A stretch of DNA of 64,000 nt from Eledone cirrhosa (Eukaryota). Location of the stretch: positions 269,018,001 through 269,082,000 of the forward strand of contig OZ024742.1 in assembly GCA_964016885.1 (NCBI GenBank), in the 5' to 3' direction. Position numbers and translations under genes: made by a program. The notes under the pieces were generated by a model. The model was not told the DNA's origin. It did not search any database and saw nothing but the letters and a program-made list of their open reading frames with translations. Of this stretch, positions 6,744 to 63,745 are shown piece after piece. Positions within the stretch are counted from its first letter, which is position 1, and every line of letters begins with the position of its first letter.

Positions 6744-6823
6744 CTGAGGAGCAGACCGATACTGGAGTCGGAGCCATAACCTCTATGGGTAAGCTTGAGG
6801 CATTCATCTGCGAAACGCATGTA
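6744..6823 (+). ncRNA. Hammerhead ribozyme motif with 51-nt loop-2 insertion (PLE pseudo-LTR)
   Basis: CTGAGGA-GCAGA...TCTGC-GAAA-CGCATG-TA, followed by AATAAA and (TA)n. A second partial copy (8365-8441, minus) has the intact palindrome GAAACGCGCGTA. Helix I is weak. Confidence 0.7.
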
Positions 6824-7012
6824 ACAGGTCGATTCGCAATAAATGTTTTTCATATGTAACCGACACTTCCTCGTTTATTCTATTATATATATATATATAT
6901 ATATATATATATATATATGAATGTATATATATTGTATTTTGATACTTATAGAATTCCAGTAATAATCAGGAACTGATTATAGAGAGCGGTTGCCGGTCAA
7001 GCAGAAATTGAA

Positions 7013-7427
7013 AATTAGAATTGGCGCTCTGAAATAGCGATATATATATATGAATGTATATATAGTGTATTTTGCAATACACTCTATGTTAATTAAAAGC
7101 ATTTCGAAGACCTTACGCTATTGTTTTAGAGTAGTGACAGTCTCACTTACTTTAATTTTCAGCAAATAGGGGAGATAAATCTGACAGAGCTTAATTTTCA
7201 GCAAACAGGCGGAGTAGTTAGCTTTGATAAGCACCAAAAAGTGCGAAACAGAGCTATGTCAGCTTTATCTCCCTGTTTGCTGAAAATTAAAGTAAATGAG
7301 ACTGTCACTACTCTAAAACAATAGCGTAAAGTCTTCGACATGATTTTAATTAAGCATGCAGTGTATTGCAAAATACACTATATATACATTCATATATATA
7401 TCGCTATTTCAGAGCACCAATTCTAAT
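7013..7427. repeat. Fold-back element, ~178-bp arms, central degenerate hammerhead at 7220-7264 (+)
   Basis: 7013-7191 is an inverted copy of ~7252-7427. Centre reads AGCT-TTGATAA-GCAC-CAAAAA-GTGC-GAAA-CAGAGCTATG-TC-AGCT. Confidence 0.85.
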
Positions 7428-7482
7428 ATTATACATATATATATATATATATATATATATATATATATATATATATATATAT

Positions 7483-61500: not shown

Positions 61501-61776
61501 GGTGCTATTGGCAGTCGATGTGTCCGCTCTGAGAGTGTCCGCTTATGGATGTGTAATTGGCGGTTGAGATGTCTCAGGATCTGTTTAATACACGTGCGAT
61601 GTATGCGGTTAGTGGTGTTTTGGAAGGCTGGTGTACGTAGGCTTACTGGTAAGCGGATGTTCTTGATGGTGTTGGGGATGACATCGTTTTTTAGGCAGCG
61701 TTTCAGGAAAATAATTTGGCAGCCAGCGTTGGCCCATTTCTCCGACAGTCCAAACAGTTCCCTTACGGATGCAAAC
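58565..61776 (-). mobile_element. PLE (Poseidon/Nematis-like), near-complete ORF with one frameshift
   Basis: [48 protein letters not shown] (frameshift ~60230), RYVDDIL and VVYKIEC..C...YIGSTIRPL..EH...EAL.IK...INNR. Degenerate HHR at 58781-58816 (minus). Confidence 0.93.
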
Positions 61777-62091
61777 ATATATATATATATATATATATAT
61801 ATACACACAGATATATCCATACATGCATAGACGCACAAGCAAATATACAAATATATATATATATATATATATATATATGTGTATATATATATATATATAT
61901 ATATATATATATATATATATATACGTACACACACACACACATATATATATATATATATATATATATATATATATATATATATACATGTATGTATATATAC
62001 ACACGTAAATATACACACAAACACATGCACATACATACATACATACACACACACACACACATATATATATATATATATATATATATATATA

Positions 62092-63745
62092 TCGCTTGGC
62101 GCTCCCTACGGAGCTGCGACGACATCATCATCAAACCGGCGGACAAGGGAGGCGCTGTGGTAGTGTTGCCCGCCGACCTCTAGACAGCCGAAGCCCCCAG
62201 TCAGCCCTGCAACCCCCTCTTCTAACGCCCCCTTATTCCGACCCCACCCCCCTCTACCAACAAGTTTCCTCCACCATGCAACACCTCGTCTCCGCTTGCA
62301 TCGTCCCTCCCACCACCTCCCACCTCATCGTCCGCACCGCCCGGACCCCCACCATCTACTTCCTCCCCAAGACACAAATTAAGTCCCTTTACTCCGTCAC
62401 ACCCCACACCGACTGCCTACGCTCCCTCCGACACTACTTCGACCTCCACCCCACAACCGTCCCGTTCACACAACCCTCCTCCACCTCGCCGAGCTGGTCC
62501 TCACCCTTAACTGCTTCTCCTCTCAGGTGAATTTTGCCAGCACAAGAATGGGCACCAACTTTGCAAATCGTTTCGTTGGTCATGTTGAGGCCCAAATCTT
62601 TGCCCAATACACCAGGTCCACGCCCGAACTGTATTGTCGGTACATTGACGACTGTATTGGAGCCACGACCCTCACCCGAGAACAGCTCGACTCTTATCTC
62701 TCCTTCTTCTGCTCCTTCCACCCCTCCATCCACTTCACCTCCTCTATTTCCTACACCCACGTCCATTTCTTGACACAACTCTGTCACCATCAACCACTCC
62801 CACCGCTCCCTCGTCACTCGGCCTTCTTCAAACCCACCGATGCTCACTCCAACCTCGACATGACCTCCATCCACGCTACACACAGGAAACACTCCATTAC
62901 CTACTCCCAACTCCTCCGGATCCGTTGCATCTGCAGCCGAGATGCTGACTTCGAGACTCATCCCCTGTCTCTGGTCAGCCATTTCATCTGTAGAGGTTCC
63001 CACCCTTCCCTCGTCCACACCGCCGTCACTCGCGCCTGCGTAGTTCACCGATTCACCGCCGTCACTCCACTCCCCAGCGCCACCAAGCACTGTCTCACCT
63101 TCTCCCTCATCAACCATCCCTCCAGCCTAACCTCCACCACACTATTTTCACACAATCGCAACCATACTTACCCATGTATCCACACCACACAAAAACACAC
63201 ACACACTCGTGCGTATCCTCAGATAAACATACTTGGTCTCCGGACTCAACACGCCCCTTGTACACACCCCCCGCTCCGACATCTCCATCTACACGGACAC
63301 ACACACTGACTTACACGCCACCACACTGGTTTTCCTAGAATCCGAACATGGAACATCGTTCTTCCCCAAACTCTCACACTCACACCCACACATACACACA
63401 CACACACGTACACCTACACACATACACACGCATCACTTTCCGCCCTCCCCACACGGACCCCTTGTTTCCTACCGCCACCACTACACGGCTCAAACCCTTT
63501 CACCACTTATTTGCATTTTAATTTTTTTTACCATCATTTTAATTTTTTTTCCTTCCCTTTAATTTTTACCCCTCTTTTAATATTTTTCAACCACTCGCCC
63601 TCACACTCTCGGAACTCTTTCCCTTCGCACTCTTCTCCTGATGAAGGGTTTATGCCCGAAACGTCGTCCTCTACCCCCAACTCTCAAGTGTGAACCTAAT
63701 ACCTACACTGTTTGTACTGCACTCCTCGTTATTGTTTTTTTTTTT
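62092..63745 (+). mobile_element. Degraded, internally deleted Neptune-like PLE with 3' pseudo-LTR
   Basis: [47 protein letters not shown] and YSQLLRIRCICS. No EN seen. Confidence 0.85.
63636..63667 (+). ncRNA. Minimal hammerhead ribozyme of PLE type
   Basis: CTGATGA-AGGGTTTATGCCC-GAAA-CGTC. Palindromic ACGT and GUC triplet. Helix I is minimal. Confidence 0.8.

Follow-up and report, generated by a model that had tools for sequence, protein, structure and literature searches.

The DNA analyzed here is a 64,000-nt window of contig OZ024742.1 of the Eledone cirrhosa assembly GCA_964016885.1 (positions 269,018,001–269,082,000 of the forward strand; positions below count from its first nucleotide), and its subject is a series of hammerhead ribozyme motifs. 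The genome comprises 3.0 Gb in 1796 contigs, and the window is repeat-rich, containing microsatellites, several reverse-transcriptase frames of the non-LTR type (LTR, long terminal repeat), a mariner-like fragment and fragments of Penelope-like elements (PLEs). An initial annotation had listed 15 hammerhead positions, by which the motifs are named below, and had proposed that each family carries its own palindromic helix III as a dimerization code. All 15 positions showed a hammerhead-type core with a closing GAAA or GTAA, the core listed at 7640 really starting at 7639, and their identity as type-I hammerheads of PLEs or retrozymes was borne out. The window holds about eleven hammerhead families, represented by decayed copies.

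Hammerhead motifs of the window

The motifs exhibited the type-I topology, with helices I, II and III around the core and an open helix I, which in the family majorities mostly measured 3–8 bp; two families have a weak helix I, 63638 with 1 bp and 6744 with 2 contiguous (5/6), and many window copies are decayed. The cores were intact only in part: CTGANGA together with GAAA is preserved at 9 of the 15 sites (6744, 39928, 40166, 41670, 44107, 52245, 56243, 56371 and 63638), whereas the others are family variants, namely TTGATAA at 7224 (30/32 copies) and CAGAAGA at 7640 (30/35 copies), or decayed (9802, 38695, 43011, 43423). Family majorities mostly matched the canonical CUGANGA...GAAA...UH, with CAGAAGA (7640) and CCGA (44107) deviating at U4. 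Helix III had been described as nearly always self-complementary; this holds for the family majority at 14 of the 15 sites, counting Watson–Crick and G·U pairs, whereas the window copies themselves are perfect at 9 of 15. A short palindromic helix III, the trait of minimal PLE hammerheads, was found in 10 of the 11 window families, the exception being the 7640 family.

The first hammerhead (6736–6831, + strand) contains a 61-nt helix II and helix III ACGCATGT at 6815–6822, with a predicted cut after 6823; the word of its family, i.e. the helix III sequence, is ACGCGCGT (4/9 copies). The 3' half of a second copy, with ACGCGCGT at 8425–8432 and the core absent, lies at 8344–8441 (−). The hammerhead at 7216–7268 (+) carries the U3–A8 covariant core TTGATAA and helix III at 7248–7259, accompanied by an inverted truncated copy at 7124–7191. 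The word ACAGAGCTCTGT, which had been reconstructed for this family from two arms, proved correct and is present in 22 of 33 copies; its helix III is also predicted to form a stable monomer hairpin. At 7591–7647 (−), the hammerhead-like motif with the core CAGAAGA is not palindromic; its helix III at 7616–7600 is a 17-nt hairpin, as in 26 of 35 family copies. This family is among the most abundant dispersed ones of our sample (35 copies, 26 loci), and its helix II has a U·U at the base; possibly it represents an inactive or variant hammerhead that was nonetheless able to spread.

A 3' half hammerhead, noted before at a slightly different position, does exist at 9286–9330 (−, ends approximate), with ACGATCGT at 9302–9295 and its core lost by a deletion of ~70–80 nt; ACGATCGT is the word of its family in 2 of 5 copies. 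Two decayed hammerheads belong to a lineage with TTTTAT in helix I and the family word ATATATAT, which they carry at 9766–9759 (9750–9810, −) and at 38732–38739 (38687–38748, +). The ACTAGT family (word in 66/72 copies) accounts for four sites. Two of them (39890–39936, −; 40158–40204, +) lie in the arms of an inverted pair (39642–39932 and 40162–40467), and two head-to-tail units, 412 nt apart, span 42753–43658 (+) with hammerheads at 43003–43049 and 43415–43461. Between these lies the hammerhead at 41662–41756 (+), with a 60-nt helix II and helix III ACGCGCGT at 41740–41747, the word of its family in 22 of 33 copies.

The 44107 hammerhead does not close at a nearby GAAC; it closes ~90 nt downstream and extends over 43991–44115 (−), with a 90-nt helix II and helix III ACGATCAT at 44007–44000. 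Its family has mostly the core CCGAAGA, a helix I of 8 bp and the word ACGATCGT (2/7 copies). At 52142–52253 (−), within the 3' repeat of a PLE, a 77-nt helix II is combined with helix III ACAATTGT at 52158–52151, the family word in 25 of 33 copies. The best-preserved hammerhead of the window (56189–56251, −) has a helix I of 8 bp, and its inverted partner (56363–56425, +) is decayed, the two lying in the arms 56139–56306 and 56308–56475 of an inverted repeat. Neither carries ATATATAT; the actual words are ATATGTAT, containing a tandem U·G, and ATAAGTAT, respectively, with ATATGTAT as the family word. One hammerhead beyond the 15 listed, with a 95-nt helix II and helix III ATCAGTCGT, was found at 56781–56911 (−). 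The last one is a minimal hammerhead (63630–63673, +) with ACGT at 63661–63664; among the copies viewed, its family shows ACGT in 5 of 6 and a helix I of just 1 bp in 6 of 6.

Helix II thus falls into two forms, 60–95 nt long in the 6744, 41670, 44107, 52245 and 56903 families and compact in the 7224, ACTAGT and 63638 families; the compact helix II of minimal PLE hammerheads (7–8 bp, short loop) is absent from the five long families. A 47–115 nt helix II region occurs in many families of the genome, also at loci L073, L101, L203 and L236, which differs from the rows of Fig. S3 of Cervera & de la Pena 2014 (PMC4209133), where helix II measures ~11–23 nt. An Rfam scan of the window was dominated by microsatellite matches to microRNA models. 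Among the 150 of 164 matches listed, no hammerhead model reached its gathering score, the sole hammerhead match being HH9 at 7207–7282 (29.4 bits, gathering score 52), and the long-helix-II hammerheads had no match. Rfam models do not appear to cover short-helix-III and long-helix-II hammerheads.

Self-complementarity of helix III

We surveyed the genome with 160 tiles of 10 kb at even spacing (1.6 Mb; 15 tiles lay near the window), amounting to 1.66 Mb together with the window, using a type-I descriptor that required helices I and II and left the inside of helix III unconstrained, such that palindromy was not used; one dinucleotide shuffle served as the chance control. Strict CTGA-core matches numbered 154 versus 0 in the shuffle, and 83 of the 154 had perfect helix III palindromes. 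A looser descriptor gave 205 matches versus 14, and relaxed TTGA/TCGA/CCGA cores had many matches in the shuffle. Within the window, a loose test (core within 110 nt, GAA and a palindrome) was not discriminating, with 14 occurrences versus 2–13 in 30 shuffles. Extrapolation from the tile sample without its two tandem arrays suggests ~2 × 10^5 strict-core motifs in the 3.0 Gb of the genome.

Copies of the window families were collected from the tile sample and by BLAST against the genome itself with helix III masked in the query; the copy counts refer to top matches and are query-biased. The survey yielded 63 multi-locus clusters, 16 of which were dropped by a core and helix I filter ignoring palindromy. 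The 47 clusters kept comprised 25 with perfect, 7 with wobble and 3 with odd-centre palindromes as well as 12 that are not palindromic, the latter being an upper bound, as several of the 47 (those with AAT, AAAAT or a long AT-rich helix III, for instance) probably arose by chance within repeats of high copy number. The ACGT family, with its helix I of 1 bp, lies outside the 47 clusters, and we parsed the AATT family anew by hand. Complete self-pairing of helix III was seen in all 20 families whose helix has 8 nt and in 8 of the 9 with 6 nt, including the central bases, which are unable to pair within one strand.

Two points relevant to the initial interpretation were supported in this data set. 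The palindrome is conserved within families, and the word changes between families in a compensatory manner also at those central positions that cannot pair within one molecule, which points to dimer pairing. Compensatory inner changes separate the ACTAGT and ACATGT families, which are related outside the masked helix III (E 1e-9), as well as the ATATGTAT and ATGCGCAT families (E 3e-11). Moreover, the monomer hairpins were predicted to be unstable (+0.9 to +5 kcal/mol) and the homoduplexes stable (−4 to −16), and most of the families that do have a stable monomer hairpin (9-nt and 16–19-nt helices) are not palindromes, which fits the published dimer model.

The family-level words include five distinct ones with a G·U wobble and none with an A·C mismatch. 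Single decayed copies, in contrast, are balanced (14 with G·U, 15 with A·C), as is pair 3/6 of one lineage genome-wide (250 G·U versus 246 A·C). As G·U is fixed at the family level and symmetric in single copies, selection for RNA pairing likely acted on the source elements, with the inserted copies decaying neutrally.

These properties largely correspond to those of the minimal PLE hammerheads described in PMC4209133 with a palindromic helix III, a dimer model and low in vitro activity. The type-I topology, the CUGANGA/GAAA core, the palindromic helix III and the many families per genome are shared, and so is the U3–A8 core, with UUGAUAA and UUGAAAA listed there for S. mansoni. In its Fig. 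S3, single genomes (S. mansoni, Aedes, Nematostella, Adineta, Saccoglossus, Latimeria) display both differing palindromes and palindromes held in common, hence within-genome palindrome variety is already published. Likewise, the small dimer-cleaving hammerheads of PMC6765202 and PMC3088659 have a short palindromic stem/loop III permitting dimers and more than one palindrome per species; in the machine-parsed Fig. S8 of PMC3088659, Schistosoma and Aedes show two words each for the palindromic stem III. In E. cirrhosa, words of 6 and 8 nt prevail over those of 4 nt, unlike in the PLE hammerheads of PMC4209133, whose alignment contains no cephalopod and beside which we found no discussion of family-level G·U intermediates.

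Carrier elements

Upstream of two window families we found remnants of PLE coding sequence. A broken coding region (53200–55600, −) lies ~1 kb upstream of the 52245 motif; the matching frame of the sister copy at L181 resembles GIY-YIG clusters, and the region in the window has no Pfam family match. A PLE-like coding segment was present ≤1.5 kb upstream in 11 of 33 copies of this family, versus 460 of 8000 random positions. About 330 nt upstream of the 63638 hammerhead, we located a broken PLE-type reverse-transcriptase fragment (62383–63309, +), for which a feature match of 0.95 to clusters with HTH_animal in 28–82% of their members provides a lead; it has no Pfam match, and Pfam left most PLE fragments unnamed.

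An adjacent, inverted 5'-truncated copy is typical of PLE insertions (PMC8557442), and an inverted copy within 1.5 kb accompanied 14/33, 16/33, 25/72 and 28/56 copies in four families. The window itself contains such inverted or truncated pairs at 7124–7191, 39642–40467 and 56139–56475. Mostly solitary copies and opposite-strand pairs 100–700 bp apart are also a feature of the hammerheads in PMC4209133. A long PLE-like frame at 59213–62105 (−) has weak reverse-transcriptase and GIY-YIG Pfam matches and is interrupted by a microsatellite at 61777–62092; near its 3' end, scans with the strict descriptor gave no hammerhead.

The ACTAGT family is a non-coding head-to-tail unit, found in tandem in 24 of 72 copies with a spacing of mostly 410–470 nt and with four units in L007. 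Non-coding tandem units with one type-I hammerhead each, a helix I of 6 bp and a helix II of 4 bp liken it to the animal non-LTR retrozymes (PMC7229834), whose units measure ~150–450 nt and which occur as linear and circular RNA, and its helix III, 1 bp plus a palindromic tetraloop, resembles that of the axolotl HHR_Amex1 (PMC7229834; bioRxiv 10.64898/2026.07.22.740005). Non-LTR retrozymes derive from the pLTRs of PLEs according to Li, Clavereau & Pollet (bioRxiv 10.64898/2026.07.22.740005). In contrast to these retrozymes, most hammerhead copies analyzed here occur dispersed as monomers or in inverted pairs. Near-identical tandem arrays of 310-nt units that contain an intact ACGCGT hammerhead (L103:6619–9719, −, and L232; 28 units in 2 tiles) are likewise comparable to animal non-LTR retrozymes and are the best candidates for an active retrozyme. 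In three possible RNA runs the coverage was a 31-nt fragment or nothing, from which we drew no conclusion on expression.

The octamer ATGCAAAT is found at 42923 and 43335, 88 nt upstream of the core, and at this distance in 7 of 12 members of the ACTAGT family; a second ACTAGT family contains it in 5 of 5 members, four times at 100 nt upstream. Outside the window, the octamer occurs at loci including L097, L103 and L219. A small nuclear RNA-type promoter is a feature of newt satellite 2, for which we found no confirming passage. The two ACTAGT families adjoin at two independent loci, L097:4300–6300 and L103:3900–5200, in opposite orientation at the junction, possibly through a shared insertion preference, and share upstream blocks by eye, which we read as a sign of probable common descent.

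The remaining repeats of the window include nested non-LTR retrotransposon frames with RVT_1 matches at 12014–15310 (−), 16601–19021 (−) and 20331–37852 (+/−), among them three related copies at about 23.5, 28.6 and 37.0 kb. A short dispersed repeat (~200 nt), in places tandem, occurs at 3444–3818, 38198–38365, 40422–40788, 45127–45390 and 47543–47663, and resembles the octopus short interspersed nuclear elements. A Mariner/Tc1-like transposase fragment at 5715–6362 (+) has HTH_32 and HTH_48 matches below the cut-off.

Dimer pairing and the question of a family code

The proposal that co-resident families carry orthogonal, family-unique palindromes did not hold, as words are common to families more often than random. 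Already within the window, ACGCGCGT is common to the 6744 and 41670 families and ACGATCGT to the 9296 and 44107 families, the latter sharing resting on few copies, with the listed alternatives being single decayed variants each; 6 of the 10 palindromic families have a helix-III-compatible partner family within the same 64 kb. The 20 families with an 8-nt helix use 12 words and form 12 identical pairs, versus 3.0 expected from uniform (P 0.0007) or 4.1 from composition-matched draws (P 0.006), with ACGATCGT in 4 and ACAATTGT in 3 multi-copy families; outside helix III, no similarity was detectable at E 1e-3 for 10 of the 12 pairs. The diversity of the 6-nt words agrees with random draws (6 distinct of 8, 5.9–6.5 expected). 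A wobble-inclusive count of cross-pairs (35 pairs) was not used, its null model lacking wobble words. Nor did we detect extra avoidance in helix I among word-sharing families: of the 37 family pairs compatible in helix III, 7 could form a cross helix I of at least 3 bp, against a background of 73 of 496.

Words also vary within a single lineage. With an unchanged helix I (TTTTAT/ATAAAA), one lineage uses ATATATAT, ATATGTAT and ATACGTAT; in a tree of 41 copies, ATATATAT and ATATGTAT were not resolved as clades (8 and 11 changes). In the lineage context, ATATGTAT is the commonest form detected, with 6,608 exact matches versus 209 for ATACATAT and ATACGTAT together; ATACATAT accounts for 22 among the 100 matches listed, and the ATACGTAT matches show helix II types of their own. 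An origin of ATATGTAT by CpG decay from an ancestral ATACGTAT was rejected, as it predicts ATACATAT in equal number. The predicted duplexes of ATATGTAT with itself (−4.2), with ATATATAT (−5.2) and with ATACGTAT (−6.7) indicate that this wobble word would form duplexes with its sisters no weaker than those with itself.

Taken together, we consider it likely that the motifs are decayed type-I hammerheads of PLEs and short non-coding repeats, in which helix III is self-complementary for pairing with a second copy, and that the words are drifting or inherited, without a selected code. Too short to fold alone, helix III would pair with its identical counterpart in another copy of the same element, and in the resulting strand-swapped dimer the core and helix II of one copy would use the cleavage site and the 3' helix-I strand of the other. 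Helices III and I would then both be intermolecular, as can be drawn from the double-hammerhead model in the legend of Fig. 1A of PMC4209133. An identical partner would force a palindrome, and many palindromes would suffice, such that the word would likely drift in the source elements, with compensatory changes passing through G·U intermediates, or be handed down unchanged to descendant families. Cleavage would process multimeric transcripts into units, like-with-like processing arising from tandem neighbours on one transcript and from helix I divergence; since helix I would be swapped as well, no code is required for like to pair with like. Most families are predicted to be mutually inert as a by-product of their divergence.

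Several observations weigh against this interpretation. Most genomic copies are solitary or inverted and cannot dimerize in cis, so the argument concerns source elements only. An 8-nt word can be folded as 2 bp plus a tetraloop, and in the invertebrate retrozymes of PMC7229834 monomers of this form reportedly cleave. The AGAACT family (29 copies at 21 loci, including L209:6914 and L037:5810, both −, in minus-strand offsets) has a short non-palindromic helix III in 19 of 29 copies, fitting neither the monomer nor the dimer model. The link to PLE coding sequence is direct in the 52245 and 63638 families only, upstream PLE coding segments being near background for most others, so that the PLE origin of most families is inferred from insertion structure and literature. 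As families are related by descent, the P values of word sharing show the lack of over-dispersion only, not selection for sharing. Finally, ATGCGCAT is the one case fitting a code: it forms a clean clade (100/100), has helix I in common with the ATATRTAT lineage and shows poor pairing with its sisters, and no amplified G·U intermediates toward it were found genome-wide (250 versus 246 in the control).

Among the alternatives, it is unlikely that the palindrome serves as a protein-recognized or ribonucleoprotein packaging element, for example holding two RNAs on a dimeric PLE protein, with cleavage being protein-assisted or incidental. The anole PLE hammerhead cleaves only with PLE protein, cleavage is unneeded for insertion in vitro and the PLE protein is predicted to be a dimer (PMC11167929), and several families here have weak cores or helices (CAGAAGA, CCGA, 1-bp helix I). 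Yet core, helix I and cleavage triplet are kept alongside the palindrome in most family majorities, and the compensatory, G·U-favouring word changes indicate RNA–RNA pairing rather than sequence read-out. This alternative is partly compatible with dimer pairing between copies, and a protein-assisted version of the latter is possible.

We give somewhat less credence to trans dimers between separate transcripts, for which helix I and helix III together would constitute a two-part compatibility barrier and thereby an RNA-level self/non-self recognition. Under this doubtful scenario, a sister keeping its helix I could be pushed to a non-pairing word (ATGCGCAT versus ATATRTAT), thus escaping cutting by, or of, its far commoner relative. 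It is equally doubtful that wobble words such as ATATGTAT give a subfamily access to partners in two sister lineages. If true, such trans-acting compatibility would represent a novel kind of self-recognition between retroelements.

A selected orthogonal code, by which co-resident families evolved different palindromes so that only like-with-like pair and cut, appears very unlikely and is largely refuted at the sequence level. At least 12 different 8-nt words and 6 different 6-nt words do coexist in one genome, different words are predicted to pair poorly, and the ATGCGCAT clade differs from the ATATRTAT lineage at up to four helix III positions despite the shared helix I. Set against this are the word sharing above random with two such pairs in this window, the amplification of a cross-pairing wobble word to thousands of copies, the unchanged helix I freedom of word-sharing pairs and 6-nt words resembling random draws. 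In the literature searched, which left most subscription journals outside its scope, we found no family code proposed or tested. That the motifs work as monomers, palindromy being a by-product of the stem III hairpin, is highly improbable: the outer positions of any stem are complementary, helices of at least 12 nt are stable hairpins and invertebrate retrozymes with 2 bp plus a tetraloop are reported to cleave as monomers (PMC7229834), but the central 2–4 bases, unpairable in one strand, are complementary in 20 of 20 8-nt families, against a chance of ~0.14 per family with the outer two pairs granted, and change in a compensatory manner.

The window and its genome offer a rich new census of a known element class rather than a new system, ordinary in kind and unusually numerous. 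New here are the G·U intermediates fixed at the family level and the many families with a 47–115 nt helix II. As these long forms are missed by Rfam, and probably by compact descriptors, animal hammerhead counts are likely too low. The dozens of co-resident families constitute a natural test set, in which the central helix III bases are kept complementary while changing via G·U (ATATATAT, ATATGTAT, ATACGTAT), and this evidence for G·U steps provides sequence support for a dimer model whose other basis is a small number of in vitro constructs.

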